A stretch of 27,725 nucleotides of DNA from Candidatus Sericytochromatia bacterium (GTDB lineage Bacteria > Cyanobacteriota > Sericytochromatia > S15B-MN24 > UBA4093). The stretch is taken from NCBI GenBank assembly GCA_036676495.1, contig JAKFCT010000085.1, positions 1 through 27,725 on the forward strand. The letters run 5' to 3'. Below are positions 3,783 through 25,127 of the stretch, in pieces. Position numbers and translations under genes: made by a program. The notes under the pieces were generated by a model. That model was not told where the DNA came from and ran no database searches. It worked only from the letters and a program-made list of their open reading frames with translations. Position 1 is the stretch's first letter, and every line of letters starts with the position of its first letter.

Positions 3783-4700
3783 TCAGCTTGACGACCAGGC
3801 GACGAGGGCCATGGCGGCAAGGCCCGCCACGACCAAAAGCGCATAATCCTGAGCCGTCGGGATGCTTTCCCCGATCTCCTTGGCAAGAGCGCTCATAAAG
3901 GCTGCGCTCGGAGAACGGAGGCCCACGCCGGCATCCGAGAGAATGATCCAACGCCGGCGGATCTCGTCCTCTTCCTCCTGGAGCCTGCCGAGTTCACCTG
4001 CAGTAAGATCCGGCATGGCCTTGACGCGATCGATGGCCGCGAGCCATTTTCCGGCATCCGCGCGCCAGGATTCCGCCTGTGGAAGGACAAAGAGGGGAAG
4101 CGTTAGATCGTAGAGGGACGGGTTCTCGATCAGGCGTCCAACATCCATATCCGAAAGTACGGGACCGGAGCCGGACAAACGCAGTTTGAGTTCGGACCAT
4201 CGCCCTGCCAAACTGTCGTTGGCCAGCCGGCGAAGCCCTCGAGACATTTCATCGGCCGACGCAAGTTCCTGGAGCGCCCCATCGGCCGTGGTGTCGGAAG
4301 GCCTGAGAAGCGAGAGGATGCCGCCCGCGGCAAGCCCAAAACCCGAGACGAGCCCGACGATGTTCCATTTTGGAGGAAGGAAACCCGTCGCCACGAAGGA
4401 AAGGCCGCTGGCGGCGAAAAAACCGACCGCTTTCGCCACATTCCCGGTATCGGTCCCGATCTTGGAATCCTGTGACTGGCCCAGATGAGGCCGGAGACCC
4501 ATCGTCCGTGAAACGGAGCCTGTAGGAAGAACCCGGCTATAGGGTCGACTTCCTAGAGTGAAGCCGCTTGCGGCCCAGATAAGTCCGTCGGCGGCCACGC
4601 CAGGCCAATTCCAGAGCCTGCCATCGGCCAGTCTACGGAGCTTTCCAGAAACAGGATGACCGATGCCTTGAGCGCCTTCGCTCTCCGGCAGGATGGTCAT
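3783..4700 (-). CDS. Putative virion membrane protein (LGQ leader, internal TM hairpin, C-terminal TM)
   Basis: ...RPHLGQSQD, hydrophobic segments AVGFFAASGLSFVATG and WNIVGLVSGFGLAAGGILSLL, C-terminal YALLVVAGLAAMALVAW. Confidence 0.7.
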   Translation of the reverse strand: MTILPESEGAQGIGHPVSGKLRRLADGRLWNWPGVAADGLIWAASGFTLGSRPYSRVLPTGSVSRTMGLRPHLGQSQDSKIGTDTGNVAKAVGFFAASGLSFVATGFLPPKWNIVGLVSGFGLAAGGILSLLRPSDTTADGALQELASADEMSRGLRRLANDSLAGRWSELKLRLSGSGPVLSDMDVGRLIENPSLYDLTLPLFVLPQAESWRADAGKWLAAIDRVKAMPDLTAGELGRLQEEEDEIRRRWIILSDAGVGLRSPSAAFMSALAKEIGESIPTAQDYALLVVAGLAAMALVAWSSS

Positions 4701-5692
4701 TCGGAGGACTCGTGAGGAGCCCCCCTTTCGTCGTAGACGACGTAACCGCCGTCCTCGCCAGGCGCGCGCGTCCCCCCATCATCGAGCGCGTGCTGGACCG
4801 CGTCCCCGGTTCAGCCGAAGGGACCTGCGGTTCTGCATGCCCCCCCGGTCGCCGGCCCCCAGTAGTCGACCCAGAAGGATTCTGCAAAACCGCTCGACGG
4901 AGGCGTTCCAGGAGGCGGAGGCGATCCGCAAGGTTCCCATACGACGATCGTTTTCGTCGGGCGATCGCAGTCGGACGGATCCAGGATCTGCCATCCCGAA
5001 GCGAGATCGACCGCGAGGCCCTCACGGCCTTCGACCTCTACCCGAAATGTCTCCTTTCCAAGGCAGAGATTCGCCCGAGCGCCGCGTCCCGGATCGACGA
5101 CGGCTCCCCACCAATACCGTCCTGCCCTAGGAAGGCCAGGGACGACGACGCGCTCCACGATCTTCCCTTTCGCCGTGTGATCTCCAAGCCTGGCACCGCA
5201 GCCGATCTTGAAAGGCTCCGGCCTCTCGCCCTGCAGCCTCATGAGGAGAGGTTTGCCGAAGATGATCCCGAGGCTCACGATATAGGCGGGAATCGAAAGC
5301 CAAGGGAGCGCGAGAAAGGTTCCGGCGATGGCCGCGCCGGCGGAGACGACGAGCGTCGTTTTTACCGCCGAAAGCTTTTCGTCACGCGCCCCGATCAAGC
5401 ATTCCTGGAGATCGAAGAGAGCCAAAAGCCCATCCCTCGGGATCGAAATGGACCCGGCCCCCCGGTGTCGCTCGATGGCCTGGGTCATCGCGCCGACCCG
5501 ATCAAGGATCGGTTGCCAGTCCCCAGGAGGGCAATAGGCGTGGAACTCTATCGGGTTGTCATTGGCGAACCCGATGACATCCTCGACCGCACGGACGACG
5601 AGCTCGCCCTCTTCGGCGGAAATCTGGATCGTCTGTCCAGGCGCCGGAGACGGCGCGAGAACCGGGCCCTGTCCAAGGAACGCGACTGCCAT
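4697..5692 (-). CDS. Putative virion membrane protein with in-frame TGA at 4811-4813 (candidate Sec/readthrough); 4811..5692 if the TGA is a true stop
   Basis: Starts MAVAFLGQGP and has a TM hairpin and Cys-containing C-terminal part. After ...CRTAGPFG-TGA the frame continues TGDAVQHALDDGGTRAPGEDGGYVVYDERGAPHESSE to a TGA at 4697-4699 that overlaps the next ATG (4700). Confidence 0.7.
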
Positions 5693-5693
5693 C

Positions 5694-5825
5694 CTACCGC
5701 TTCTTCCGTTTCCCCTGGAAGACGCAGGTGCCCTTGACCCGTTTGCCCGAACGCATGTGGCTTTTCCGCCAGAATCGTCCCGGCCGGCACTTCCGGCCGC
5801 CGAGCTCAAGGAGCGCGTCGGCCAT
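5694..5825 (-). CDS. Small basic Arg/Lys/Cys-rich protein (possible nucleic-acid-binding core protein)
   Basis: Manual translation MADALLELGGRKCRPGRFWRKSHMRSGKRVKGTCVFQGKRKKR, with a strong GGAGGAGGT RBS. Fills the gap exactly. Confidence 0.7.
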   Translation of the reverse strand: MADALLELGGRKCRPGRFWRKSHMRSGKRVKGTCVFQGKRKKR

Positions 5826-5828
5826 CGT

Positions 5829-6092
5829 TCACCTCCTCCTCGTGGGGCTCCGTGAACCGACCTCGATCACCGTCTCCGGATGGTGCCTTTGTCCGATACC
5901 GAGGTATTTCAGGGGACACGAGATCGGCTCGACGAGCGGATCCCCGCGCTCCTTTCGGAACTTGACTCTGCGATCGGTTCCGACCTCGGCGATCCGTCCG
6001 TCGCCGAGCTTCTTCCTGAGGACGGCTCCGCGCCCGGGTTTGCGGTAGCAATGCCCGGGCGAAAGCTCGCTCAGCCGCGCGAGCTGTCTCAC
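5829..6092 (-). CDS. Hypothetical basic protein
   Basis: GTG start 2 nt after the upstream TAA, with GAGG RBS: MRQLARLSELSPGHCYRK... Confidence 0.6.
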   Translation of the reverse strand: MRQLARLSELSPGHCYRKPGRGAVLRKKLGDGRIAEVGTDRRVKFRKERGDPLVEPISCPLKYLGIGQRHHPETVIEVGSRSPTRRR

Positions 6093-6094
6093 GT

Positions 6095-6349
6095 TTACTG
6101 CCTCGTGAGCGCCGAAAAATCGTTCCAGGCCCGGATGCCCGCCATAAGCGCGACCAGCCATCCGACGGTCCGCCAGCCCCCCCGGAAGCTGAGTCCGGCC
6201 GTGACGCCGAGGGCGGTAGCGAATCCGTTCGAGATCAGTCCGACGACGCGGTTGTCGAGCACGCTCGACTGCCCGAGGATCGGTCCGCGGTATCCGAGAT
6301 TCGGCCGTCTCTGGATGATCGGCATGCCCATCCGCGTAACCATGTTCAT
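6095..6349 (-). CDS. Small 2-TM membrane protein with LG/LGQ leader
   Basis: MNMVTRMGMPIIQRRPNLGYRGPILGQSS... followed by two hydrophobic helices. ATGA-coupled to the upstream gene. Confidence 0.7.
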   Translation of the reverse strand: MNMVTRMGMPIIQRRPNLGYRGPILGQSSVLDNRVVGLISNGFATALGVTAGLSFRGGWRTVGWLVALMAGIRAWNDFSALTRQ

Positions 6350-6657
6350 CGCTTCTTCCTCCTCGCCGAGTCCCGGGTTCCGAGATCGGCAACCGACGCG
6401 TTCATGCAGTCCGTCAAAGAACAAGCCGGCGTTTCCCGGATCACCAGGCGGCGCTTCTTTCCAGCTCCAGCCAGGGCACCGGGAGCTACGAAGTAGAAAC
6501 GGTTGCCCCGCCTCACCGCCGCGACCGAGGCGCGGGAGGCGCCCGCAAGATCCGCGACGATGATCCGGTCCCCCACAAGTTCGCTCCTGGCGATCCGGAG
6601 CGGCCCGTCCGGCCGCTTCATTCCCTCCAGGGCTCAGGCATCGACCTTGATTTTCAT
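6346..6657 (-). CDS. Hypothetical protein with in-frame TGA at 6634-6636 (candidate Sec/readthrough)
   Basis: ATG 6657 overlaps the upstream stop (ATGA) and reads MKIKVDA-TGA-ALEGMKRPDGPLRIA...PACSLTDC. The downstream ATG 6621 has GGAGG only 2 nt away, which is poor spacing. Confidence 0.65.
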
Positions 6658-7028
6658 GCCCATCGGCCTCCTTCCAGCGCGCGACCCGTTTCCCGGGCGA
6701 TCCTCAAACTTGACAGCATCGCCTCGGCCGCGACGTACGTCTCCTCGGCGCGCTCGATGGCAAGGGCCGCCTCATCGAAGACCGCGGCCGTCTTTTCCGC
6801 GCCCAGGAGGTCGACCAGCGCCTCGGCTTGTCTGGCGATCCCCTCGGCCCTTTTCCTGGCGCCAACAAGCTTTGCGTGGGCCCGTTCCCGTTGGGCCAGG
6901 ACGGTTTCCGACGGGTGATCGACGGGAGGCGGTTGGGGCGTGAACGGGAGCCTCACGACCTCTTCCTGACCGAGAAGAACTCTCGGCCCGGAGAGCCGCG
7001 AAAGCCCTGTCCACCGTCTGGATGCCAT
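6654..7028 (-). CDS. Helical/coiled-coil protein with LGQ leader
   Basis: MASRRWTGLSRLSGPRVLLGQEE..., GGAGG RBS, Ala/Glu/Arg-rich helices. Confidence 0.75.
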   Translation of the reverse strand: MASRRWTGLSRLSGPRVLLGQEEVVRLPFTPQPPPVDHPSETVLAQRERAHAKLVGARKRAEGIARQAEALVDLLGAEKTAAVFDEAALAIERAEETYVAAEAMLSSLRIARETGRALEGGRWA

Positions 7029-7036
7029 CCGGCCTC

Positions 7037-7819
7037 CTAAAACGCAATCCCGACGACGATCACTCCTACCGCAAGCGCGGCGATCCCTATCAGCGCGAAC
7101 GATTTACGCCGCTTCGACGAGAGACCATCCGCGCATGCCGTCACGAGATCGGTCGCATGGATGTCTCGGACCGTGGCCTGGACCAGATCGGTCTCGGGCC
7201 GCGCAAGCTCGTCGGCGAGTCTGGCCCGGAAGGAACGCGCATCGGCAAGGACGAGGGGATCGATCGCGAGTCCGCAGGCCTCTTTTCGTTCTAGGTCGCT
7301 TGCCTCGGCAACCTTGGCGATGGATGAATCCAGAGCCTCGAGTACGGCCTCGGCTTCGGGCCTGGCGAAATCGACGGAGGGACCCGGGGCGGGGCCGGCC
7401 TGAGTTCCGCCAGGGGGCGGCGGCATCTCTTCTCTCGGCGGTTCTGCAGGCCCTTCGTCCTGGCCCAGATGATAGGCTCCGTAAGAGCCCATCCGGAGCG
7501 GAACCCAGGCGCGGCTGGACGCGTCAAAAGCCGTTCCGGCGCGGAGGGCCGCGTCGCCTCCCCTCAACTGACTTGACATCCGAAGCACTTGAGCGGGTGC
7601 CTGGGTTTCGCGGCCGGAGATGCCCTTGCGGGTTGCCTTGGGCCTTCCGAGCCTGACCTCTTCCGGATTCCTATCCATCTCGTTCCACGCCGCCGGCCTG
7701 GAGCGCGTCACGCGCGGCATCATGCCCGCGCCGCCTCAACCCAGTCCGGGTTCTTCTTTCTCCGCGCCCTCCGGGCGCGGACCGAGCGGCATCGACTTTC
7801 CTCAACCCAGGGCGCTCAT
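7037..7819 (-). CDS. Tail-anchored putative virion protein with two in-frame TGA codons (7802-7804, 7736-7738)
   Basis: GAGGAGG RBS, then ATG 7819: MSALG-TGA-GKSMPLGPRPEGAEKEEPGLG-TGA-GGAGMMPRV..., in frame with the 7037..7723 ORF. Contains YHLGQDEG, a two-Cys helical domain and C-terminal TM FALIGIAALAVGVIVVGIAF. Confidence 0.7.
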
Positions 7820-7832
7820 CGGGCCTCCTCGG

Positions 7833-8210
7833 CTACAAGATCTGCCGGGCGATCGAAACGAGTCCGCCCGCCAGCGATACGGCGCCGGCGAGCGACTGCC
7901 ATGGCCTTGATCCCTCCGAAGCGTCGAGAGCCGCGAGTCGTTCCGTCACGCGGCCCTCCGCCATCCGCACGAGGGACTCGAGCCTTTCCATGCGGCCGAG
8001 ATCGGCCTCTCGCGCCCGAACCCCAAGATGCAGGATCCGCTCAAGCGACCCCGTTCCCAGGAGGAGCCTTGCCTCCAGGGATGCGACCTCAAGCCCGAGC
8101 TGGGCCGCAGTCTCGGGTTCGCTTTCCCCGAGCTCCGCAAGGGCCCTCCCGGAGCGCCCGAGCAGGTTGGCCTGCTCGGCCAGGAATCTTCCGGCAAGCA
8201 TTTCATCCAC
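7833..8210 (-). CDS. Helical protein with C-terminal TM anchor
   Basis: Leu/Glu/Arg helices ending in PWQSLAGAVSLAGGLVSIARQIL. Confidence 0.7.
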   Translation of the reverse strand: MDEMLAGRFLAEQANLLGRSGRALAELGESEPETAAQLGLEVASLEARLLLGTGSLERILHLGVRAREADLGRMERLESLVRMAEGRVTERLAALDASEGSRPWQSLAGAVSLAGGLVSIARQIL

Positions 8211-8217
8211 GATCGGA

Positions 8218-8595
8218 TCACCACTCGGTCTGCTGGACGTCCGTCACGCGCGTGCCGGGCGGAAACGTGAGTTCGACGTTGTCGATCATCTCCTCGCCGT
8301 CCTCGGTCACGCCCTTGACGTCGATCCTGCACTTCCGATGGACCGCCCCGAGCGCCGGCTGCGGTCTCGCGGGGGGAGCCAAAGGAGCCGCAGGCGCGGG
8401 CATGGGCACCGGAGGCGCCACCGGTCTCGGCAACTGGCCCCGGACGAGTTTTCCGAGTTTCGATGGACCCGCGCCGCCGCCGTCGCCGAGCTGGATGGCC
8501 ATTCCCAGTTGCTGGCTCCGAGGATCCATCTGGACCGGGATCGTCTTCGATCCCTTCGGCGAGAACTTCGGCGCGGCAAAGACGTCCTTTTCCAT
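8218..8595 (-). CDS. Putative structural protein (multiple LG motifs, Pro-rich linker, small beta domain)
   Basis: QQLGMAIQLGDG..SKLGK..PALGAV, then CRIDVKGVTEDGEEMIDNVELTFPPGTRV. AGGAG RBS. Confidence 0.75.
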   Translation of the reverse strand: MEKDVFAAPKFSPKGSKTIPVQMDPRSQQLGMAIQLGDGGGAGPSKLGKLVRGQLPRPVAPPVPMPAPAAPLAPPARPQPALGAVHRKCRIDVKGVTEDGEEMIDNVELTFPPGTRVTDVQQTEW

Positions 8596-8610
8596 GACCT
8601 GTCTCCTATC

Positions 8611-10389
8611 CTATGAGACGATTATACCAGCCGCCACGAGGGTCGCAAGAAGTGCCGCGCCGGCGGGCGCGCCGATTCCAGAAAGCCTTGATGCGACCGG
8701 CGGTACCTCAGGGATCGCCCAATCGCGCGTCCTGTCTTCGTCGATGGGCGTTCCGTCCGGGCCCAGAGCGCGTCCGGTCTCGGGATCGCGAATCGCCCCC
8801 GTTGGCTCGCCGGTCCTCGGATCCAGGATCGCCTGGGTCTCAGGATCGAAGACGAATCCGGTCCTCGGATCGACTTCAAGGCTCGTCGGCCGTCCGTTCC
8901 GGAGCACCGCCCCGGTCGTCGGATCGATGGAAAGGACATTCCCGGTCACGGCGGCGCTCCTGGCGAGTTCCTCCTCGGCCGCGCGATAAAGCGCATCGAG
9001 GAGGAGTTGGTCCGTGCACCACAGGAGGAACGCCACGACGTCGTTCGGAAGATCCCTCATTCCGAGGGCGATTTCCTTGAATTCCTCCGCGGAGCGGGCC
9101 CCGACCGCGTTGATCGACCCCACCAGGAGCCGTATGGCGAAGACGAGCGCGGCGCTTCCAGCGGACTGGAGCGTCGCGAAATCGGCCGCTCCGGAGGAGA
9201 GGACGCCCGATCCCGCGTCGCCGGCGATCGCGTTGACGGCCGTCGGAATGGCCTGCTGGGCCACGCCTGCGACCCTCGGATCCGCATCGCGGGCGAGACG
9301 GGCCACGATCGCGGACAAGCCGGCCGAAATGGCAAGATCGATGCCCGGCTGGCCGCCGCTGAGGACCCCGTCGGCCAGTGCGTTCCCCCCCGCTTGGATC
9401 TCGGCAGAGCGGACTCCAAGATTCCGGTAGGCGTACGTGGCGAGATCGACGATCGAGTTCCCGATGCCCGTCGCTCCGGCGATCGGGCCAAGCATGAAGG
9501 AGACCGCCAGTCCCATGGTCGACATGGCCCTCGCCATCCTCGTGACCTCGCGGAGGCGTTTTCCGAGCTTATGATCGATGCAGTCGATGATCGTCGCGAT
9601 ATTGACGAGATAGCGCGCGGCCAGTTCCGTGCGGATCGCGCGGTCCGTCCGTGGGAAAAAATCGCTCATGTCCGGCACATAGATCCTGAAGTTCGCAAGG
9701 GAGAGCGGAGCGCCATCCTTTCCGCGCCAGACCGGGGTCCCGAACGCGCAACGCCGGAACCAGTCGGTATCCTCGATGTCCGGAAATGGGATCTCATCGA
9801 AGACAGCCAGGGCCTGCTCATAATTTGTGATGAGGGCAGGCCAGTCCCGAGGCAGGATAACGGGATCGGCAAGAGCCCAGGAGAGTTCTCCCGCCCAATG
9901 CCGCAAAAGCCGTGGATCGCGGGGCCGAAAGTTCTCGACGGCCGCATGAGCCTGGTCCGCGGCGAAACTCGAAGGGCCTCCCCATGCAGCCTCGGTTTGC
10001 GCCAGGACGTCCGAGAAATAGGCCCTTCTCTCGGCGACCTCGCAGACGACCGAAGCGATGCCTGGCGGGCAAACGATGAGGGTGACGGTTCGGGGTCCGC
10101 CCGGCATGACGTCTTTGGACTGGCTGCCCGGAATCTCGGCCGAGATCCGGATGATCGAGGCGGGAGGAAGGGGACCGATATCGGTCACCCAGCGTCCGTC
10201 GGTTCCCGCTTGGCCGGCCGATGCCGCGACGGGCGCCAGCCAGCCGCGGATCGGGTCGAACGGAACCACGTCCGCCCTGACCCCGACTCCGCCAAAAGGG
10301 GCCAGATCGTCCGCCCTGAGAACAAGGACCTCCACGCGCGTGGGAGGGAAGGCCGTGCCTGCAGCCTGTCCAAGGGCGGAGAATCTCAT
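8611..10389 (-). CDS. Large putative virion protein (LGQ leader, hydrophobic middle region, DPxTG repeats, C-terminal TM)
   Basis: MRFSALGQAA..., Gly/Ala-rich hydrophobic helices, five DPxT(G/Q) repeats and C-terminal AALLATLVAAGIIVS. Start position uncertain. Confidence 0.75.
   Translation of the reverse strand: MRFSALGQAAGTAFPPTRVEVLVLRADDLAPFGGVGVRADVVPFDPIRGWLAPVAASAGQAGTDGRWVTDIGPLPPASIIRISAEIPGSQSKDVMPGGPRTVTLIVCPPGIASVVCEVAERRAYFSDVLAQTEAAWGGPSSFAADQAHAAVENFRPRDPRLLRHWAGELSWALADPVILPRDWPALITNYEQALAVFDEIPFPDIEDTDWFRRCAFGTPVWRGKDGAPLSLANFRIYVPDMSDFFPRTDRAIRTELAARYLVNIATIIDCIDHKLGKRLREVTRMARAMSTMGLAVSFMLGPIAGATGIGNSIVDLATYAYRNLGVRSAEIQAGGNALADGVLSGGQPGIDLAISAGLSAIVARLARDADPRVAGVAQQAIPTAVNAIAGDAGSGVLSSGAADFATLQSAGSAALVFAIRLLVGSINAVGARSAEEFKEIALGMRDLPNDVVAFLLWCTDQLLLDALYRAAEEELARSAAVTGNVLSIDPTTGAVLRNGRPTSLEVDPRTGFVFDPETQAILDPRTGEPTGAIRDPETGRALGPDGTPIDEDRTRDWAIPEVPPVASRLSGIGAPAGAALLATLVAAGIIVS
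8765..8928 (-). repeat. Protein-level DPxTG repeats (IDPTTG, VDPRTG, FDPETQ, LDPRTG, RDPETG)
   Basis: Five degenerate copies are visible in the translation and as ggatc-containing DNA repeats. Confidence 0.8.
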
Positions 10390-10424
10390 GGGCGTACGGG
10401 CAAACGGAAGGATACCCCAGGAGC

Positions 10425-10553
10425 CTATCGGCGACCCTTCTTCTTCTTGCAGCAGAGCCAGCGGGCCTTCTTGCCCCGACCGACCCTCTTGCACTTCCGG
10501 CCCTTCATCCTCTTCTTCGAGAACTTGCAGGGCGGCATCCGCTTCCTCGCCAT
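10425..10553 (-). CDS. Protamine-like Lys/Arg/Cys-rich peptide
   Basis: MARKRMPPCKFSKKRMKGRKCKRVGRGKKARWLCCKKKKGRR with GGAGGT RBS. Confidence 0.75.
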   Translation of the reverse strand: MARKRMPPCKFSKKRMKGRKCKRVGRGKKARWLCCKKKKGRR

Positions 10554-10570
10554 GGAAACCTCCAAAGAAT

Positions 10571-11107
10571 CTACAGGATCTGCGTCAGGAGGATCGCCGC
10601 CACCACGGCCACGCCGGCGCCGACGATCGGGAGGGTGAGGTCGGGTCCCGGAGCTCCCGGGACCGTGATGGTGCCCGGCGGAGGGAGTTGCCCGACTTCC
10701 CGTTCCGAAGCCCTCACCCGGTTCTTGAAATCCTCGTTGATCTTCTCGAGTTCCGTCACCCGGTTCTGCCGGCGCTCGACGGCATACGCGCCGTAGTTCG
10801 GGGGCGTGTAGGCCTCGACATCGGTCTGGATGTCGGAGACCACCGACCGGTACCGGTAGGCCGGGCTCGTCGGGTTGTTCGGGGAGCCCAGCCAGTCGAA
10901 GATCGCGCGCCGGGCCGAGACGCTCGCCAGGATGTTCGTCCTGCGCACGAGGTCGTCGTAGGCGGCGGTGGCGGCCTTCGCTCGCTGGTACCATTCGAGA
11001 TCGGTGGCGCCGAGCGTGTAGTTCCGCATCCTGGCTCCCAGGACGGGACTCGCAGGACGGAAATAGTTGTTGAACCCGGGACCCGCGAGGCGTGCTCCAT
11101 GGAACAT
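10571..11107 (-). CDS. Tail-anchored putative virion protein (YTLGAT leader)
   Basis: AGGAGG RBS, PVLGARMRNYTLGATD, helical body, Pro linker and C-terminal LPIVGAGVAVVAAILL. Confidence 0.8.
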   Translation of the reverse strand: MFHGARLAGPGFNNYFRPASPVLGARMRNYTLGATDLEWYQRAKAATAAYDDLVRRTNILASVSARRAIFDWLGSPNNPTSPAYRYRSVVSDIQTDVEAYTPPNYGAYAVERRQNRVTELEKINEDFKNRVRASEREVGQLPPPGTITVPGAPGPDLTLPIVGAGVAVVAAILLTQIL

Positions 11108-11125
11108 ATTGATCCTCCTGCGATC

Positions 11126-11554
11126 CTATCTCCGGGCGATGAAATATACCGCCGCGCCGACGCCGACGGCGGCCACGGCGCCCACGATGAGCCAGGGGAA
11201 GCCGCCGGCCTGGGGAGGACGGACGGGAGGAGCGGCCCCGCCAGCCGCCTCGTGTCTTCGAACGGATTCCCGGACGTCCTCGTAGAGGTTCTTCAGGCAC
11301 CTTCCTCCCTGGTAGAGTCCGATCACGCCTCCCTCGCCGAGTTTGCGCTGGCACTCCTCGTACCTGGCCCGATACTGCCCCATCAATCCTTCCGGCAGCC
11401 TCCCCAGGAGGTCGATGATTCCTGAAGAGAGGCCTTCGACGTCGATATCCTCGAGGAAGTCCTGGCCGAGATAGGGCGTGAAGGGATTCCCGAGTCTCGG
11501 TCCTGAGAACGGACCGGTCCCCAAACCCGGGCGCGATAGAAGACGCATCATCAT
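11126..11554 (-). CDS. Tail-anchored putative virion protein (LG..LG..LGQ leader)
   Basis: MMMRLLSRPGLGTGPFSGPRLGNPFTPYLGQDF..., two Cys and C-terminal GGFPWLIVGAVAAVGVGAAVYFIARR. ATGA-coupled. Confidence 0.8.
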   Translation of the reverse strand: MMMRLLSRPGLGTGPFSGPRLGNPFTPYLGQDFLEDIDVEGLSSGIIDLLGRLPEGLMGQYRARYEECQRKLGEGGVIGLYQGGRCLKNLYEDVRESVRRHEAAGGAAPPVRPPQAGGFPWLIVGAVAAVGVGAAVYFIARR

Positions 11555-12081
11555 GCGGTTTCCTCCTTGCGGGGCACTGCGTGGCGATGGTTGAAACCGC
11601 CGAGCCCGCGCCGGCCATCGGGAAGGACGGGTACGGGCGGCGCCGAAAGCTCGCTCATGTTCTCGAGGCCCGTGACGATGCGCTCGAGAGTGGCCTCGTC
11701 GAGTCGTTTTTCCAGACGTTCGCCGAGCTTTCTCCAAGTCTCAAGCACCGGCTTCACGTCCTTTTCCCAGTATTCAGGAAGTTTGTCGTCGACCAGTTTC
11801 TCGATCAGCGATTCACTACGCTCGACGCTTTCGACGCTCCGGAATCCAGATTCCCGGGAAGGGACGAGAAAGAGATAGACGAAGGCGTAGATCCAGATGG
11901 CCGCGACGGCGGGGATCGTATAGGCGCCGTTAAAGACCTGGAGCGCGGCGTGCACGGCCTGCGGCAGTCCCGTATAGAGGAGAATCCCGGCAGGACCGAC
12001 GACGAAAGCCGATACCGCCACCAGTCTCCCATGAAGGCGGGTCGTCTTCCGGTACCATTCCCGGATGGGTTGTCCGGTCAT
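11551..12081 (-). CDS. 2-TM membrane protein with C-terminal coiled coil
   Basis: MTGQPIREW...VAVSAFVVGPAGILLY...IPAVAAIWIYAFVYLFLVP, followed by a charged helix. TGATG-coupled. Confidence 0.75.
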   Translation of the reverse strand: MTGQPIREWYRKTTRLHGRLVAVSAFVVGPAGILLYTGLPQAVHAALQVFNGAYTIPAVAAIWIYAFVYLFLVPSRESGFRSVESVERSESLIEKLVDDKLPEYWEKDVKPVLETWRKLGERLEKRLDEATLERIVTGLENMSELSAPPVPVLPDGRRGLGGFNHRHAVPRKEETA

Positions 12082-12593
12082 CAGAACCTCACCATGGTCG
12101 CCGCGAGTCCCCAAGCTTGCTCGCGCTCCTCGAAGTCCCATCCGACCCAGGGACCGATCGTGACGTCGATGAGGGCCACGATCCGCTTGCCCAGGTAGAT
12201 CTCGGCGACCTGGGATCCGGCGCCGGCCTGGAGGATCCACCATCTGGCCCACGGAACCTTGAACCTGAGGATCTCGATCCCCACGGTCGGCGTCATCCTG
12301 GGTTCGGGCTTGATCTCGGCCGCGAGCCCCCCATGGATCGATGGGAACGAAAAGAGCGCCTCGGCCGCTGGATCCTCTGGCCTGTAAACGCCTTTTTCGT
12401 CGACGCTCCCGGGTTTGCCTGCGCCATGCTCGATGCCCCTATCCCAGCCCCATCGGAACTCGAATGGAGCTCCGGGATCGCCGCCGAAATCGAGAGCCCT
12501 GAAAAACGCGCATCCTGAAAGAACAGGGGCGACCAGCATCAGGAAAACTGCACGCCTGATGCCTTGGCCGCGCCAGCCAGCTTTTCGAGCCAT
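12081..12593 (-). CDS. Lipoprotein with beta-strand-rich, outer-membrane-like C-terminus
   Basis: AAGGAG RBS, signal peptide MARKAGWRGQGIRRAVFLMLVAPVLSG|C (lipobox), amphipathic strands and terminal Phe (...ATMVRF). Confidence 0.7.
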   Translation of the reverse strand: MARKAGWRGQGIRRAVFLMLVAPVLSGCAFFRALDFGGDPGAPFEFRWGWDRGIEHGAGKPGSVDEKGVYRPEDPAAEALFSFPSIHGGLAAEIKPEPRMTPTVGIEILRFKVPWARWWILQAGAGSQVAEIYLGKRIVALIDVTIGPWVGWDFEEREQAWGLAATMVRF

Positions 12594-12829
12594 TCGGCCA
12601 GAGTCTCCTTTTTTCGCCGCGCTTTCCACGCCTGTCCTACGACCCAAAGACGCCTCAGAATGAGGCCGATTTCCTCGGCCTCGGCCTCCGTCACCCTCGC
12701 ATCCCGAAGACGGAGAAGCATGCGGTTCCAGCCCACGACCAACGCTTCCCGGAAGACATGGTCGTCCGTCCCCGGGACCACGGGGCCCGGAAAGAACCCG
12801 GTCACGCAATCCTTGAAAAAGAACGTCAA
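12539..12829 (-). CDS. Hypothetical protein (start uncertain)
   Basis: (M)TFFFKDCVTGFFPG...EWLEKLAGAAKASGVQFS fills the gap. TTG start assumed; overlaps the lipoprotein signal sequence. Confidence 0.45.
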   Translation of the reverse strand: MTFFFKDCVTGFFPGPVVPGTDDHVFREALVVGWNRMLLRLRDARVTEAEAEEIGLILRRLWVVGQAWKARRKKETLAEWLEKLAGAAKASGVQFS

Positions 12830-12873
12830 GGTCCCGACGTCTCTCGCCGAGGCCCTGCCGCCGAAAAAGGCCC

Positions 12874-13347
12874 CTATGGCGTCGGCGGCGCCGGAGGCGT
12901 AGGGTTTGCCGATCCCGCCTTGAAATCCTCCAAGAGCTCCCGGGTCTTGACGACGGCGTTTCGCCAGACCGCCTTCACGGCGACTTCGAAGATCATGGTA
13001 AGCCCTGCGAAGATCGGGCTTGCGACGGCGGAGGTCCCGAAATCGGACGGGTTGATCTTGAAGATTCCGGCGACCAGTCCCAGGATCGCGCCAAAGATGC
13101 AGGTCTGGACGAGATACTGTATCCCGAACTCCTGGTGGCTCCCGGCGCGGGTGTCCCGGTTCTTGGCGTAGCCGGCGAACGATGCCAGGATGCCTCCCCA
13201 GATCCCCTGGAGAAGCCCCTGCCACCAGGTGCCTCCCGTCGCCCCGCCCGCAATCGAAGCACCGTCTGCCGCCATGGCCGCCGCCGGCAGGATGAGCATG
13301 AGAGCCATCGCCGCCGGCGCCCAAAACATCCTTGTCGCGAGCTTCAT
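12874..13347 (-). CDS. Multi-TM membrane protein, holin-like
   Basis: Signal-like N-terminus plus three hydrophobic segments, GGAGGAG RBS, ATGA-coupled. Confidence 0.65.
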   Translation of the reverse strand: MKLATRMFWAPAAMALMLILPAAAMAADGASIAGGATGGTWWQGLLQGIWGGILASFAGYAKNRDTRAGSHQEFGIQYLVQTCIFGAILGLVAGIFKINPSDFGTSAVASPIFAGLTMIFEVAVKAVWRNAVVKTRELLEDFKAGSANPTPPAPPTP

Positions 13348-13628
13348 GTCGTCTCCTCCTCCTGCCCGTCATCGGGCATCGTCTTTTCCGCGCCCGGCCC
13401 GTGCGTCCTGGCGGACGCTTTGTCACCGGACGCAAACGGTCCGGGCGGGCCGGGCGTTCGCCGATCCGTTTCTCCGTCTGCAAGCTTTCCGGTTTCGAGA
13501 TGCGCCGCCACGGCCGCCTTCAGACGCTCCTTCTTTTCCGGAGCGGCTTCCTTCGCCTTGACGAGGAGATCGACCCGGTGCTTCCGGATCTTTCCCATGG
13601 TCTCCTGGATCTCTCTCTTGACCGTCAT
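13344..13628 (-). CDS. Hypothetical charged protein
   Basis: 94-aa ORF, ATGA-coupled at both ends. Confidence 0.65.
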   Translation of the reverse strand: MTVKREIQETMGKIRKHRVDLLVKAKEAAPEKKERLKAAVAAHLETGKLADGETDRRTPGPPGPFASGDKASARTHGPGAEKTMPDDGQEEETT

Positions 13629-13843
13629 CTCAGATTCTCGAAAAGGTTCCTGAGATACCTCTCCTGCTCGGTGACGACTTCATGGAGATCCTTCCTGCAT
13701 GCCTTGAGGTCGTTATAGAGCTTCTTGGCCACGAGACCGAGCCCGCTCGTCACGGCCACAACGACGCCCGCGAGGACATAGGCGATCCCCTTCCAGTCGA
13801 CCGGCGCATCGGCCATGCTCGCCGCCAAATTCCAGAGATCCAT
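13625..13843 (-). CDS. Small single-TM plus coiled-coil protein (holin/lysis-accessory-like)
   Basis: WKGIAYVLAGVVVAVTSGLGLVAKK followed by a coiled coil. Confidence 0.65.
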   Translation of the reverse strand: MDLWNLAASMADAPVDWKGIAYVLAGVVVAVTSGLGLVAKKLYNDLKACRKDLHEVVTEQERYLRNLFENLR

Positions 13844-13846
13844 GCC

Positions 13847-14512: not shown

Positions 14513-14522
14513 GTCGATCCCC

Positions 14523-15089
14523 CTAGTCCATCCGCCAAGCCCGGAAAACGATGTGGAACCTCGCGATCGACGCGATGTCGTAGTTGAGCGCGAAGACGCG
14601 GAATCCCCCTTCGGGGCAGAGGCCGAAGTTTTCCGTGTTCACGAACGCGCCGCGGGTCTCCTGGGGATGGGTCGGGAGACACATCTCCGGGAAATCCACG
14701 AATTTGTTGTTCTTGAAGGACACCTCGCCCGAATCTTCCGCGGTGACGTTCGCGGCGGTCACCCGCAGGATCTCGACCCATACGCCGGCATCGAGCGGAG
14801 CGCATATTTCCAGGATCTTCTTCTCGAACGGGTCTTGGGCCGACGGCGCCGGATCGACGTCCGTTTCGAATTCGAAGTAGGTGACCGGACCGGCGGGCCA
14901 GACCGTGCCGATCGGTCTCAGGGCCCCCATCAGGTGAAGGAGTTTGACGACCTCGGCCGCGAAGCCGCCCTCGGCGATGATGCGCCTGACGGAAGGAGGG
15001 AAATCCCCGGTCCTGCAATAGCGCAACCAGTCCGAAAGCGAAAGCCAATCTCGGACTGCCGACGCGTCCGGAATCTCCGCGATCTTCAC
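14523..15089 (-). CDS. Beta-rich protein; candidate second (jelly-roll) capsid protein
   Basis: GGAGG RBS and GTG start. Alternating beta-strand patterns (VTYFEFET, VWVEILRVTA, FRVFALNYD, RFHIVFRAWR). Directly follows the capsid candidate. Confidence 0.5.
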   Translation of the reverse strand: MKIAEIPDASAVRDWLSLSDWLRYCRTGDFPPSVRRIIAEGGFAAEVVKLLHLMGALRPIGTVWPAGPVTYFEFETDVDPAPSAQDPFEKKILEICAPLDAGVWVEILRVTAANVTAEDSGEVSFKNNKFVDFPEMCLPTHPQETRGAFVNTENFGLCPEGGFRVFALNYDIASIARFHIVFRAWRMD

Positions 15090-15121
15090 CTAACGGCCTC
15101 CGATGACAGACAAGCGGACCG

Positions 15122-15154
15122 GCGGAGGGGGACCCGTCCGGGTCCCCCGTCCGC
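15122..15154 (-). terminator. Strong GC hairpin downstream of the capsid candidate (terminator or mRNA-stabilising element)
   Basis: GCGGA-C-GGGGGACCC-GGAC-GGGTCCCCC-TCCGC, without a clear U-tract. Confidence 0.45.
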
Positions 15155-15187
15155 GCGGCCGTTGATATGTCCAGCGAACGGGTTCGG

Positions 15188-15925
15188 CTAGGTGCCGAAG
15201 GGCCCCTGTTCGAGGCCGTACTGCACGCCGTACCCCGGACGGGGTCCCGGGACGCCCGCCGTCCCGGCGACGACCGGCGGGGCGAGCTGGGCCTCCGCGC
15301 AGGCGTTGATCGGGACGATCTGCTGGGTCTGGGGCTCGTAGACCCCGGGGGTCAGCCAGCAGCGCTTCCGGTCCTGGGTCGAATACTCCCACTGCCGCCA
15401 GATCGTCACGAGCGTGAAGGTCTCGGCGAACCCGGTGGGGAAGGCGGCCGTGAGGGTGGCCAGCGTGTCGCGGGTCGTGAAGACCAGCGGGCACTCCTGC
15501 TGGAGCATCGACACGGGGACGCCGGGGATCACGCGGGCCGCGGTGGTCGGCTGGCCCGTCACGGCGCAGACGCCGCAGCCCGTGTACTTCTTGATCGAGT
15601 CGTCGTCGATCAGGGGCTCGTCGTCGTTGTCGAGCGTCAGGCGGACGAGGCCGCGGATGTAGAGGATGTAGTCCGCGATCGGCATGTCGTCCGTCTCGAA
15701 GTGGGGCCCCGCGGCGAGCATCGCGTTGCAGGGTCCGGGGGCGTTGCCCGGCACGGCGTTGTTGATGACGGTCGCGGTCACCGTGGCGTTCGTGGTGGCG
15801 ATGCCGTCGACCGTGTTCACGTAGAGGGCGTCCGCCGAGCAGATGAGCTTGACGGGCACCGCCTGGCAGGCCATGGCATCGACCACGGCCGCGTACATGG
15901 GCGGGTTCCTGTACATCTGGTTCAT
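15188..15925 (-). CDS. Candidate major capsid protein (single jelly-roll-like)
   Basis: 245 aa, Thr/Val/Pro beta-rich, no TM. Near-exclusive G/C third positions suggest high expression. AGGAAGGAG RBS, flanked by structured UTRs. The fold is inferred, not demonstrated. Confidence 0.55.
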   Translation of the reverse strand: MNQMYRNPPMYAAVVDAMACQAVPVKLICSADALYVNTVDGIATTNATVTATVINNAVPGNAPGPCNAMLAAGPHFETDDMPIADYILYIRGLVRLTLDNDDEPLIDDDSIKKYTGCGVCAVTGQPTTAARVIPGVPVSMLQQECPLVFTTRDTLATLTAAFPTGFAETFTLVTIWRQWEYSTQDRKRCWLTPGVYEPQTQQIVPINACAEAQLAPPVVAGTAGVPGPRPGYGVQYGLEQGPFGT

Positions 15926-15953
15926 CTCCTTCCTGACCGTTTTCCCTTTTCCC

Positions 15954-16075
15954 GGCCTGTTTCCAGGCCACACGCGCTTTGGCCGCCGCCGCCGGGCGGG
16001 GAGGCCGTGGACCCTGGAGCGGCCTTTCGGCCTCTCCTCCCGGTGGGGTCCGCGGCTCCCCGGCCCGGCGGCCGC
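15954..16075 (-). ncRNA. Structured intergenic RNA / 5' UTR upstream of the capsid candidate
   Basis: Long stem GCCGCCGGGC-CGGGGAG-CCGCGGACCC ... GGGTCCACGG-CCTCCCCG-CCCGGCGGC capped by GGCC-GAAA-GGCC, then a second hairpin GGCCTG-GAAA-CAGGCC (two GNRA tetraloops). Confidence 0.55.
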
Positions 16076-16079
16076 GCGG

Positions 16080-16703
16080 TTACATCGCCGGCTGAAGGAT
16101 CCGGACCGGCCTGGGCTGCCAGGCCGACGGCTGGGCCGCCCGCGGCGCGAGCGCCCCGCGCAGGTTCTGGAACCTTTCCCTGACGGCCGCCGCCGGGGAG
16201 GGCGCCTGCCTGGGCAGGTAGCGCCGGTCTCCCATGAGCGCCGGCTTCTGCATGCCGAGCGCGTCGAGGCCCGCGTCGGCGAGATCGAACGCGAGCTGGA
16301 GGACGCCGGGGAGCGCGATCCCCACGGTCATGTCGTTCTTGGCGAAGAAGAACGGCACGATCCCGACCAGGGCGTTCACCCCGTCGACGGCGAGCTCCGA
16401 ATCCGTGCCCAGGATCGAGGGCGTCACCCGCCTGAGGAGCCGGTTGCCGACCGCTCCGAGGAGCCCGCCTCCCACCATGCGCCCCGTGTTCACGTGCGTG
16501 GGGATGCCGAGCTTCGCCCCGAGCGACGGCCCCGAGAAACCCCAGCCGTGGGCGCCCATCCCCGACTGGCGCGCGCCGAGCGCGCGACCGTGCGCGCCGG
16601 CCATCCCGCCCTCGCGGAGCCGGCGCTCCAGGGCCTCCCCGAGGTCGATCGTGACGTTTCCGTCCGGACCCCGGAAGGCCTTGCCTTTGACCTTCTTGCC
16701 CAT
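16080..16703 (-). CDS. Putative major virion membrane/core protein with LG/MG-rich leader
   Basis: AGGAGG RBS, RALGARQSGMGAHG..PSLGAKLGI, Gly-rich hydrophobic segments and strong codon bias. Precedes the capsid candidate. Confidence 0.75.
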   Translation of the reverse strand: MGKKVKGKAFRGPDGNVTIDLGEALERRLREGGMAGAHGRALGARQSGMGAHGWGFSGPSLGAKLGIPTHVNTGRMVGGGLLGAVGNRLLRRVTPSILGTDSELAVDGVNALVGIVPFFFAKNDMTVGIALPGVLQLAFDLADAGLDALGMQKPALMGDRRYLPRQAPSPAAAVRERFQNLRGALAPRAAQPSAWQPRPVRILQPAM

Positions 16704-16773
16704 CTCCGTTGCCTCCTGTCACTGTCAATAGAGCCGCCGGCCGAGCGACGGGCCCGGCCGCCTGACCTTCCTT

Positions 16774-17394
16774 CTACGATGCCGCAATCAGCGCAAGCGC
16801 CCCCGCCCCTATCGCGAGCGGGACTCCGATCAGAAGCGCGGCCGAAAGGCCCCCTTCGTCCGCGCCGTTCCCGTCCGACCTGACATCGGCCCGATCCCTC
16901 GGAAGCATCCTTTCGACCTGGTCCCTGGCCTGCGGAGGGGCATTGTCGAGGATCCTCTGCCGGGCCTTGGAAACCGTGTTTTTCCGGTCCTCCTCTCCGA
17001 AGTTCGCTTCCAAGGCGTCGGAGAGCCCCTCGAAGAGGTTCGATATTTTTTCGAGAGCCAGGTGCGGGATCTCGATGGCGAACTTGAGGATCGCGCCGGC
17101 GGCGAGGACGGCCTGCGCCGCGAGCTCCCCGAGAAGGGGGATCTCCCTTAAAAGCGCCGAGACGTTCGAGAAGACGACGTCGACGCCGGAGACGAGGAGT
17201 TCGGTCGGCACGGAAACGATATCGGCGATGACTCCGACCACGGTCCCGAGGGCGTCGGCCAGGAACTGCGCGGCCGACGAAAGGGCGTCGCCCAAGGCCG
17301 GTCGGCGCTGGGCGAGAAACGGCCTCTGGCGGGCGGACGTCCCGGAACGGCCGAGTTCGAGGAGCTCGGTCGCTCCAAGCGTGTAGGCCCTCAC
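16774..17394 (-). CDS. Tail-anchored putative virion protein (YTLGAT leader)
   Basis: GTGA-coupled start MRAYTLGATE..RPALGDAL, amphipathic helices and C-terminal LLIGVPLAIGAGALALIAAS. Confidence 0.75.
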   Translation of the reverse strand: MRAYTLGATELLELGRSGTSARQRPFLAQRRPALGDALSSAAQFLADALGTVVGVIADIVSVPTELLVSGVDVVFSNVSALLREIPLLGELAAQAVLAAGAILKFAIEIPHLALEKISNLFEGLSDALEANFGEEDRKNTVSKARQRILDNAPPQARDQVERMLPRDRADVRSDGNGADEGGLSAALLIGVPLAIGAGALALIAAS

Positions 17395-23543: not shown

Positions 23544-23860
23544 AGCCGTTCACGTGCCTTCTCTGCAAGGCTTCTCTTTTGGAGAAGAAGCCCTTCTCTG
23601 TTCCGGTCTCGGACACGGTTTCGGCCAATCCGCTCTGCCGTCCCTGCGCGGCAAAGCTTTCGGTGGACGAGATCCTTTCGTTCGTGTCCACCCAGACCGA
23701 ATCGTGGCCTCCGGAGGCGCCCAGGAAGGACAAGGATCCCCCAGGCCGCATGGAGACCGCGCGTCTTTCTCTCGAGCGGTGGTTCGCCGGGCACGGTCTT
23801 GCGGAGGATCCGCTCGATGTCCGAGATATCGAAAAACACAAGGGCAAAGCCGCGCCTTGA
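23540..23860 (+). CDS. Zinc-finger protein (CxxC...CxxC)
   Basis: FTCLLCK...PLCRPCA, ATGA-coupled to rep. Confidence 0.7.
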   Translation: MKPFTCLLCKASLLEKKPFSVPVSDTVSANPLCRPCAAKLSVDEILSFVSTQTESWPPEAPRKDKDPPGRMETARLSLERWFAGHGLAEDPLDVRDIEKHKGKAAP

Positions 23861-23885
23861 CCCAGAGGCGCATATCCGATATACT
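23857..23885 (+). promoter_or_regulatory. Sigma70-type promoter probably giving a leaderless mRNA
   Basis: TTGACC-17 nt-TATACT, with ATG 23892 six nt downstream and no RBS. Confidence 0.65.
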
Positions 23886-23891
23886 TTGGCC

Positions 23892-24560: not shown

Positions 24561-24570
24561 GAGGTGATCT

Positions 24571-25101: not shown

Positions 25102-25127
25102 CATCCCCAAGCGGCCCATGATAAGAT
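25098..25127 (+). promoter_or_regulatory. Sigma70-type promoter with extended -10
   Basis: TTGACA-18 nt-TAAGAT with TGn immediately upstream of the -10. Confidence 0.6.

Follow-up and report, generated by a model that had tools for sequence, protein, structure and literature searches.

The stretch of DNA analyzed here (the window; 27,725 bp, 64.8% G+C) is the whole of contig JAKFCT010000085.1 (C85) in a metagenome-assembled genome (MAG) of Candidatus Sericytochromatia bacterium (GCA_036676495.1). Genes were called with a model of codon usage and of G+C content at third codon positions (GC3), trained on 963 long open reading frames (ORFs) of the bin. Curation left 36 genes on the contig, with some of the start codons picked with an N-terminal motif, [L/M]-G-[Q/A], in view. 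The genes form a minus-strand arm (approximately 2526-21244) and a plus-strand arm (22395-27687), which diverge near 22.1-22.4 kb. Our subject is the part of the minus-strand arm between 3783 and 21244, with a core that appears to code, in the order of transcription, for a 677 amino acid (aa) helix-turn-helix (HTH)/coiled-coil protein, a Cys-His-Asp enzyme, a tail-anchored protein, a Gly-rich membrane-associated protein and two beta-sandwich proteins of 242 and 188 aa (Table 1). We consider it rather probable that 3783-21244 (-) is the late arm, holding the genes that build the particle, of double-stranded DNA viruses of soil and groundwater bacteria whose lineage is undescribed and not recognizably tailed.

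Table 1. Genes and other features of the window, in order of position (TM, transmembrane segment; L002 and L005, related metagenome loci)
Feature	Position	Strand	Remarks
GDP-L-fucose-synthase-like epimerase	1224-2177 (Pfam ORF 1227-2351)		Pfam match above cut-off; NCBIfam GDP-fucose-synthase-like match below cut-off
Group of less certain genes	3783..8210	-	weak codon signal; relatives at hand stop short of this part
Gene of this group	3783-4502	-	anchored; H-L-G-Q
Gene of this group	4811-5692	-	F-L-G-Q
Gene of this group	6095-6349	-	I-L-G-Q
Gene of this group	6346-6621	-	
Gene of this group	6654-7028	-	L-L-G-Q
Gene of this group	7037-7492	-	anchored; H-L-G-Q
Gene of this group	7833-8201	-	borderline anchor
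125-aa protein	8218-8595	-	L002 ortholog
Large tail-anchored protein, 592 aa	8611-10389	-	Gly/Ala-rich hydrophobic stretches; A-L-G-Q at residues 5-8
Tail-anchored protein, 178 aa	10571-11107	-	T-L-G-A; L002 ortholog (82-92% identity over the genes of 8218..11107)
Tail-anchored protein	11126-11554	-	Y-L-G-Q; counterpart in L005
Five small membrane/exported proteins	11551..13843	-	conserved in L002 at 69-81% identity (together with 11126-11554)
2-TM protein	11551-12081	-	counterpart in L005
Lipobox-like protein	12081-12593	-	
Protein with signal-peptide-like start plus 3 TM	12874-13347	-	
Small protein, 94 aa	13344-13628	-	
Small protein, 72 aa	13625-13843	-	one TM
Tail-anchored protein, 221 aa	13847..14512	-	A-L-G-Q at residues 29-32; LGQ kept in L002 and L005 orthologs
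Candidate second capsid protein, 188 aa	14523..15089	-	three N-terminal helices, then 7-strand beta-sandwich (model)
Candidate major capsid protein, 242 aa	15188..15916	-	all-beta (model); GC3 0.96, highest codon bias on the contig
Gly/Arg-rich protein, 207 aa	16080..16703	-	two conserved hydrophobic helices (alignment A7 of 9); GC3 0.94; synteny
Tail-anchored protein, 206 aa	16774..17394	-	C-terminal hydropathy 2.35; conserved position in loci
Cys-His-Asp peptidase-like (transglutaminase-like) gene	17391..19184	-	N-extein 18696-19184, C-extein 17394-17627
Intein, 356 aa (residues 164-519)	17628..18695	-	directly before the conserved Cys; LAGLIDADG-like motifs by eye only
HTH/coiled-coil protein, 677 aa	19187..21220	-	opens the conserved core
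Small conserved protein	21325-21564, or up to 21801	-	precedes the core in relatives, in 1-2 copies
HNH endonuclease	21683-22057	-	phrog_2340, E 1.2e-19
Replication initiator-like gene	22395..23543	+	phrog_1408, E 1.9e-6; heads the divergent right arm
Right-arm genes, three tail-anchored	23817..27254	+	23817-24560 (G-L-G-Q), 25716-26207 (A-L-G-Q), 26736-27254 (I-F-G-Q)

With the intein-free family of the enzyme we located 33 metagenome loci (given L numbers below) and one IMG/VR record (G061). Comparison by tblastn with all window proteins revealed a shared order. The gene of a small protein comes first and that of a 680-840-aa protein next; the peptidase-like gene, often with a second copy behind it, then leads to genes for an anchored, a Gly-rich, a 240-aa and a 190-226-aa protein. 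A homolog of the 677-aa protein was situated directly upstream of the peptidase-like gene in 26 of the 33 loci; the 240-aa protein was found downstream of it in 15 and the next beta protein in 8, the other loci being short or matchless. The small protein had matches in L002, L004, L005, L006, L011, L013 and L027.

Locus L002 was collinear with the window over 8218-27254, at 53-96% aa identity. At 25-35% identity, L005 extended the synteny to the 2-TM protein, two anchored proteins and the large anchored protein (8611-10389 against L005:17882-20071, 26% over 474 aa, E 1.7e-37). In every locus, the gene of the 240-aa beta protein was the most codon-biased one.

The relatives sit on contigs of 65-242 kb, with divergent arms that carry replication genes of phage type, for an archaeo-eukaryotic primase (AEP), XPD-like helicase, AAA_24, UvrD, single-stranded DNA-binding protein (SSB), ThyX and RNA ligases. 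G061, a linear record of 236,090 bp, has long same-strand arrays and auxiliary genes typical of large phages. Just downstream of the core, L011 codes for a 975-aa protein (L011:14892-17816) with a pectate-lyase domain (2.5e-16) and matches to tail-spike PHROGs (5e-12), and L024 codes for an 823-aa protein (L024:14449-16917) with matches to 'virion structural', tail-spike and collagen-like fiber PHROGs (4e-56). Since genes of the spike or fiber type directly follow it, the core sits in a virion module.

A small beta-rich protein with the N-terminal motif '..TRQK.D.LF' is encoded after the core in L005 (14518-14877), L011 (14520-14879), L015 (14489-14950) and L022 (7666-8127), and the motif also opens the tail-spike-like protein of L011. 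This suggests a shared domain that may anchor proteins at the vertices; the window has no counterpart.

A preliminary description of this DNA had taken 3783-17394 for the structural module of a probably undescribed virus. This is now well supported by the gene order in the 33 loci and the IMG/VR record, by the spike and fiber genes beside the core, and by the lack of any phage or plasmid match. The capsid candidate and the peptidase gave no match in 50,697 phage records, nor did the peptidase in 72,556 plasmids. Used as a locus query, the capsid candidate found nothing in viral, genome or metagenome contigs, and the 597-aa enzyme precursor and the 685-aa version of the HTH protein found nothing in viral contigs. 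No match (0) came from 185,579 species genomes when these were scanned with a pattern, and none from 60 relatives of the MAG (0/60). We found no description of this gene set in word searches of the literature, supplements excluded. The lineage itself was present in soil and groundwater sequencing runs, with no RNA run listed among those containing it; runs X1-X4 contained 93-99% of the words sampled.

Two neighboring genes code for candidate capsid proteins. The family of the 242-aa protein is tiny, with 4 relatives in 5.77 billion proteins and 9 representatives in 1.84 billion; GC3 of the related genes ranged from 0.81 to 0.99. The AlphaFold2 (AF2) model of this protein, built from 12 sequences, had a predicted local distance difference test score (pLDDT) of 63.4 and a predicted template modeling score (pTM) of 0.60; it contains 13 strands and two short helices, and its tail is disordered. 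A Chou-Fasman prediction (41% strand, like VP16 and VP17 of phage P23-77) was superseded by the models. For the 188-aa protein, the model from 8 sequences (pLDDT 67.5) had three helices and seven strands, with pLDDT 80-94 in its core. We read both models, which are of monomers and so carry no orientation in a shell, as beta-sandwiches of the eight-stranded type compatible with single jelly rolls. We also observed that the capsid candidate has 8 conserved Cys residues.

Among the 50 best VIA matches of the 242-aa model, 11 were capsid or vertex proteins of FLiP, PRD1, STIV, HHIV-2, HCIV-1, PBCV-1, EhV, phiCjT23, SPV1 and orf virus, all of which we take to be jelly-roll, membrane-containing lineages. 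The 188-aa model matched capsid chains of SH1, HCIV-1, SPV1 and HHIV-2 at E values from 3.5e-3 to 1.3e-2; in BFVD its matches were mostly unnamed beta-sandwich proteins, with one pleolipovirus protein at E 8.8e-4. The models thus neither establish nor exclude a specific tie of the two proteins to the capsid proteins of Varidnaviria. Alignment of the 242-aa family with the 188-aa family by hhalign (A2 against A4) showed no paralogy, and searches of PDB sequences with A2, A3, A4 and the 597-aa protein returned only an intein match.

Upstream of these genes in the direction of transcription, the 207-aa Gly/Arg-rich protein is a candidate for an abundant membrane-associated virion protein because of its high GC3. 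The 677-aa protein has an N-terminal HTH, a Pro-rich linker, a long charged middle part resembling a coiled coil, and a conserved C-terminal domain. Its Pfam match was weak (CENP-B_N/HTH). A profile of 11 homologs searched against PDB hit the HTH domains of Sleeping Beauty PAI (7.5e-4) and GcrA (7.8e-4); all other homologs of this protein (685 aa in the longer call) are unnamed.

The module is rich in membrane proteins, as supported by a Kyte-Doolittle scan for C-terminal anchors (19-residue window, mean hydropathy of at least 1.6, within the last 27 residues). Such an anchor was found in 10 of the 36 genes of the contig compared to 171 of the 3649 genes in the other 105 contigs of the bin (Fisher p = 5e-6). 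As the sole hydrophobic segment of the protein it occurred in 7/36 genes of the contig compared to 15/3649 in the rest of the bin. Seven anchored genes lie within 3783-17394 (those marked as anchored or tail-anchored in Table 1). The preliminary description had counted eight there; the eighth, 7833-8201, is a borderline case with hydropathy 1.53. The three that it had placed on the right arm were all recovered.

None of the ten anchored proteins (0/10) has an N-terminal hydrophobic segment, in agreement with the earlier remark that they lack signal peptides; two other genes of the region look exported by eye, 12874-13347 by its signal-peptide-like start and 12081-12593 by its lipobox-like start L-S-G-C. 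The Pro/Gly linker strings singled out earlier are there as well, GGFPWLIVG in 11126-11554 and GAFPWLAVG in 13847-14512, two proteins with paralogous C-termini (blastp, 40% over 47 aa, E 2.6e-4). We rejected a PEP-CTERM, PGF-CTERM or sortase-type sorting signal for these strings: they occur in only these two paralogous proteins and had no NCBIfam match, and most of the anchors end within 0-3 residues of the C-terminus without a basic tail. Type IV pilin leaders were rejected too, as no hydrophobic stretch follows the Gly.

By the same hydropathy method, 18 of 36 ORFs of P23-77, a known phage with an internal membrane, had a hydrophobic segment and 7 of 36 had a C-terminal one, including VP15, ORF18 and VP19 around the capsid genes. 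Therefore, the set in the window is typical of an internal-membrane virus and no outlier, and the earlier notion of an unusually large set of membrane proteins has to be given up. In a relative approximately 95% identical to the window, found in run X5 of another study, most of the anchored gene 23817-24560 is missing (23890-24559 (+); the joint skips 668 nt). This gene is, therefore, dispensable or variable.

A new feature of the anchored proteins is a shared N-terminal motif. The string LGQ was present in the first 80 residues of 10/36 window genes versus 83/3649 in the bin (p = 1e-8), and x[L/F/M]G[Q/A] was present in the first 60 residues of 10/10 anchored proteins; with the longest ORFs taken, the motif was still at most 98 residues from the ORF start. 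The residues ahead of it are few, basic and variable. In the 206-aa anchored protein of the core, the N-terminal L-G-A-x-E-L-x-E-x-G was invariant (alignment A5, 9 homologs). Six of the seven L002 orthologs examined kept the motif despite changed neighboring residues, the exception being the ortholog of 26736-27254. At 25-35% identity the motif recurred in L004, L005, L011 and L022, and it was seen even at the N-terminus of the L011 spike. In G061, all anchored ORFs on plus-strand blocks carried the motif (5/5), and none of those on the minus strand did (0/6).

G061 also has two adjacent genes, 17609-18154 and 18164-18700 (+) (L039), for thioredoxin-domain proteins (phrog_22) with an LG[Q/A] leader and a C-terminal anchor. 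These two may act in the particle as redox enzymes tethered to the membrane.

The gene next to the HTH protein codes for 597 aa with the intein and for 241 aa after splicing; its 11 intein-free homologs have 176-256 aa. Across 10 homologs, D-C-D-E, H-H-x-W and a later D were invariant (C164, H201/H202, D217), in the order Cys, His, Asp. The Pfam family Transglut_core (PF01841) matched 4 of 10 members weakly and below threshold (best E 0.0083), and the family had no match among PDB sequences.

A tandem second copy of the gene was seen in relatives L015, L024, L020, L022, L018, L029, L026, L014, L012, L028 and L019, though not in the window. Within their last 150 residues, the second copies had the Cys motif (D-C-D-E) replaced in 11 out of 11 cases, and often the His as well. 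By its sequence, the second copy looks like a catalytically dead partner.

Judged from these residues and from the motif, the enzyme most likely recognizes the motif and acts as a maturation peptidase that would cut at L-G|[Q/A]. We also considered a true transglutaminase, which would link the Gln of LGQ to lysines of the shell proteins and so staple the membrane proteins to the capsid with no cleavage of leaders. The sole family match, a weak one, is to Transglut_core, and the third residue of the motif is usually Gln, located in a flexible N-terminal tail. However, Ala replaces Gln in two conserved families (T-L-G-A in 16774-17394 and 10571-11107, with R-L-G-A in relatives), which argues against this role because Ala cannot be an acyl donor. 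Moreover, the short, variable and basic leaders ahead of the motif look like propeptides. Most bacterial transglutaminase-like domains act as peptidases. A transglutaminase is, in our view, rather unlikely, and we retain the peptidase.

The intein shows the expected hallmarks: a Hint domain, Cys as the first residue, a terminal His-Asn, Cys at position +1, and intein-free homologs. It scored 45.4 bits with Pfam Intein_splicing (cut-off 35.8) and matched NCBIfam intein_Nterm at residues 164-245; its G+C content was 57.4% versus 65.8% in the exteins. The X5 relative carries an intein-free allele (joint 17624>18703), as does protein P0013, and the intein was found again in L002, L025, L031 and L032. 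An XPD-like helicase of L011 (L011:3024-6173 (-)) has an intein with a LAGLIDADG domain; therefore, inteins recur in the lineage. Like inteins in essential phage genes, the insert in the enzyme is of the Hint type, of a size to hold a homing endonuclease, placed at a residue of catalytic type and variable among strains. Usual hosts of phage inteins are terminase, polymerase or helicase genes; unlike these, the host here is a peptidase-like morphogenesis gene. Such a polymorphic intein is a natural marker of an essential gene.

For the window, the profile searches gave few matches. Pfam, run on 138 six-frame ORFs of at least 90 aa, found above cut-off only the epimerase (1227-2351) and the intein (17394-19184). 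PHROGs on 45 ORFs identified the epimerase, the HNH endonuclease, the replication initiator and one unknown family, with no structural family among them. NCBIfam on 38 genes gave a below-cut-off GDP-fucose-synthase-like match and the intein N-terminus, and again no structural family. Thus, no portal, terminase or tail gene was recognized in the window by the three collections, as reported earlier, and no HK97 capsid gene either; the 0 matches in the 185,579 species genomes speak against a cellular system.

The contig is probably a piece of a larger genome, since its close relative L002 sits within an 82-kb contig, so that little weight attaches to what is missing from the window. The main rival is a highly divergent tailed phage (Caudoviricetes). 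In such a phage the hallmark genes would lie off the contig, and the module would be an accessory set, with, for instance, proteins of the decoration or cement kind, others for ejection or in the membrane, and a protease of the prohead type. The fragmentary contig and the cut end of G061 leave room for hallmark genes, the relatives match tail-spike and tail-fiber PHROGs, and the same-strand arrays of small genes, RNA ligases and methylases of G061 look like those of a jumbo phage.

On the other side stand the searches of the relatives. In G061, scans with Pfam or PHROGs took in every ORF at 0-53 and 183-222 kb, plus every one of at least 230 aa at 53-180 kb, with no terminase, portal or HK97 capsid found (the portal was tested through these ORF scans alone). 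Six-frame searches of the same record, which is incomplete, for Terminase_6N, TerL_ATPase and Phage_capsid had 0 matches each. The 20-kb late arms of L005, L011, L015 and L024 likewise had no terminase, portal or HK97 capsid. The top codon bias of the gene of the 240-aa beta protein in every locus speaks against a tailed phage as well.

The search for a packaging ATPase gave a divided answer. The window had none by Pfam, PHROGs, NCBIfam or the Walker A pattern. The distant relative G061 codes for a 603-aa ATPase of the FtsK-HerA type (L037:6999-7868(-); Pfam DUF87/HerA, 1.3e-11). The N-domain of this protein and the packaging ATPase of P23-77 share PHROGs 2666 (8e-12 and 2e-38, respectively) and 7035 (8.7e-13 and 2e-6), and BLASTP aligned the two at 25% over a stretch of 160 aa (E 8e-8) that includes Walker A and B. 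The label 'terminase large subunit' of PHROG 2666 therefore covers packaging enzymes of the FtsK-HerA type. Hence an ATPase of the FtsK-HerA packaging type exists in the lineage, as seen in G061 and not in the window, and its role in packaging we infer. The only packaging-type ATPase of G061 groups with the FtsK-HerA type of P23-77 and not with classical terminases, a further point against the tailed phage, which we regard as unlikely.

The anchored proteins could instead belong to the outer envelope of an enveloped or pleomorphic virus that has no icosahedral shell over an internal membrane, with the beta-sandwich proteins serving as spikes, matrix or nucleoprotein-associated parts. The large number of anchored proteins, the window without a packaging ATPase, the generic nature of the beta-sandwich matches and the pleolipovirus match of the 188-aa model are all in line with it. 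The pleomorphic viruses known from bacteria and archaea are small in genome size, though, compared to the 65-242 kb contigs of the relatives. The ATPase of G061 is a further point against such a virus, and the two adjacent beta-sandwich genes with a P23-77-like arrangement of anchors fit a membrane-borne shell better. Accordingly, we find an enveloped virus quite unlikely.

In the right arm, nine 10-nt units GTGCnnnnGC form an iteron array at 22867-22956 (+), internal to the initiator gene (repeat family D1). The array resembles an origin embedded in its own initiator; the X5 relative misses 30 nt of it, that is, three units. A replication initiator with iterons, together with many bitopic membrane proteins, a lipoprotein-like gene, a large polytopic protein and the tyrosine integrase of G061, would suit a non-viral mobile element, a plasmid or an integrative one, with genes for membrane-embedded machinery, for instance of transfer or secretion. 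We saw no VirB4, VirD4, other ATPase or relaxase in the window by Pfam, NCBIfam and the P-loop scan, and no match in the plasmids and species genomes searched. In the relatives, spike and fiber genes adjoin the core and the surroundings consist of phage-type early genes. A mobile element of this kind is, therefore, very improbable.

A late arm of an undescribed virus is thus the reading we prefer, and several observations weigh against it. No P-loop gene was seen in the window, where the Walker A pattern is present in six places in the six frames and in none of the called genes; nor did the late arms of 17 loci show a canonical Walker A near the core. The G061 ATPase is situated approximately 40 kb from the core, among genes of early type. 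The record itself is incomplete, with the 240-aa gene cut at one end and no continuation at the other, and its unseen genes could include a terminase; the spike and fiber genes fit a tailed phage too. The capsid models are of middling confidence (pLDDT 63 and 68) and come from shallow alignments (12 and 8 sequences). Foldseek of the 242-aa model against PDB had 0 matches at E <= 0.001, and hhalign of both families with P23-77 VP16 and VP17 gave probabilities of 0.1-2.2% (one member, single sequences). The enzyme is assigned to the peptidases by its conserved residues together with a Pfam match below threshold, and neither cleavage, nor lipid, nor a particle has been observed.

That the virion is tailless, has an internal membrane and belongs to Varidnaviria, as first proposed, is reasonable but unproven; the lineage may be a new branch of membrane-containing viruses. 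More tentatively still, and with doubt, we suggest that these bacterial viruses form a deep lineage not seen before, with jelly-roll capsids, a membrane and genomes reaching >236 kb, and that they would mature by action of the Cys-His-Asp enzyme on the [L/M]-G-[Q/A] leader of tail-anchored proteins.

The proposed course of assembly is as follows. The late genes would be expressed from the divergence point, the core being followed by a run of small proteins that one C-terminal helix presumably holds in the membrane. These anchored proteins would insert post-translationally into the cytoplasmic membrane of the host, with their bulk on the cytoplasmic side, and would mark a membrane patch. Below or around a shell of the two beta-sandwich proteins, this patch would become part of the virion. 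Assembly of PRD1 and PM2 on a virus-marked membrane patch, as given in PMC6356626, serves as the model for shell assembly. The HTH/coiled-coil protein may link DNA to assembly. The short basic leaders would end in [L/M]-G-[Q/A], a site that the Cys-His-Asp enzyme of the virus could recognize, most likely trimming the leaders in the course of maturation. An FtsK-HerA type ATPase, encoded off the contig, would package the DNA, and the spikes or fibers could mediate adsorption.

Several further observations concern the contig and its bin. The bin has 4.14 Mb in 106 contigs and is 91.9% complete and 6.7% contaminated; the bacterial small signal recognition particle (SRP) RNA was found in it twice (contigs C34 and C75), which fits this contamination. 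No transfer-messenger RNA (tmRNA) was found in the MAG, and scans of the contig gave 0 tRNAs and 0 Rfam families. Other contigs of the MAG had no homolog of any window gene except distant paralogs of the epimerase. The contig has no terminal repeat, and the reading as a closed circular contig was dropped. A prophage integrated in the MAG chromosome was dismissed as well, the window having no integrase and the family not being found in species genomes. We lean toward a virus fragment binned into a bacterial MAG; its presence in this particular bin may equally be due to mis-binning.

The left end of the contig (1-3733) contains genes of sugar-metabolism type and a gene for a secreted protein that runs off the contig. 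The epimerase was only 24-33% identical to the paralogs of the bin. An ORF within 539-1531 is possibly glycosyltransferase-like by eye, with no match to a Pfam, PHROGs or NCBIfam family; G061 likewise encodes glycosyl- and methyltransferases.

Scans for promoters (4 versus 1.7 expected) and terminators (22 versus 13.8 expected) were uninformative. Contig depth at 10394-11060 was four to six times higher in runs X1, X3 and X4 and approximately twofold in X5, with many loose ends at 10569-10660. The most likely cause is unrelated GC-rich contigs that match the Ala/Val/Gly-rich anchor-coding stretch at 85% likeness, and not copy number.

Membrane-containing tailless bacterial viruses are probably common, but their sampling is very poor, since profile searches miss their genes. 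A searchable signature for one such dark lineage is offered by the family of the peptidase, by the 240-aa beta protein and by the architecture of a leader plus a tail anchor. If the proposed maturation is true, it would be a bacterial counterpart of proteolytic maturation in the style of adenoviruses or poxviruses, and the shared motif beside a conserved cysteine enzyme makes this mechanism directly testable in vitro. If the very large contigs of some relatives are single virus genomes, they would upset the view that large genomes of prokaryotic viruses belong to tailed phages only; to our knowledge, >236 kb would be about five times the largest tailless prokaryotic viruses.

Among known systems, PRD1 (Tectiviridae) and PM2 (Corticoviridae) differ from the lineage in that the capsid candidates here have the size of single domains and are not double jelly rolls; no homology to these viruses was detected. 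We know of no maturation protease in either of them.

With regard to maturation, the closest likeness is to the adenovirus protease AVP, which, according to PMC4246237, cuts a number of precursors of capsid and core proteins at consensus sites like I-V-G-L|G and also peptides like M-R-G-G; in both systems a single viral cysteine enzyme would meet a short Gly-containing site common to many virion precursors. Here the site is [L/M]-G-[Q/A] near the N-terminus of at least 10 window proteins; unlike the adenovirus precursors, these putative substrates are mostly membrane-anchored, and we infer their cleavage. The order of residues here is Cys...His...Asp, transglutaminase- or papain-like, whereas adenain has another order and another fold.

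The comparison with P23-77 is the most detailed one. Neither by sequence nor by profile did the candidates resemble VP16 or VP17. The block of ATPase, small and large capsid genes conserved in Halopanivirales, viruses with two single-jelly-roll capsid proteins, was not seen, as the 17 late arms searched had no canonical P-loop near the core; peptidase, anchored and Gly-rich genes stand upstream of the capsid candidates. The core adds a peptidase-like gene and the 677-aa HTH protein, both absent from the listing of the P23-77 record; the P23-77 genome has 17 kb compared to contigs of 65-242 kb here, and the hosts here are apparently soil bacteria, not thermophiles or halophiles. On the other hand, both have two small beta-sandwich structural genes side by side (those of 242 and 188 aa here, those of VP17 with 291 aa and VP16 with 173 aa in P23-77), small proteins with C-terminal anchors surround the capsid genes of P23-77 as they surround the candidates here, and the packaging ATPase of P23-77 is homologous to the ATPase of the relative G061. 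Weak structural matches of the models to capsid chains of SH1, HCIV-1 and HHIV-2 are a likeness to these viruses as well.

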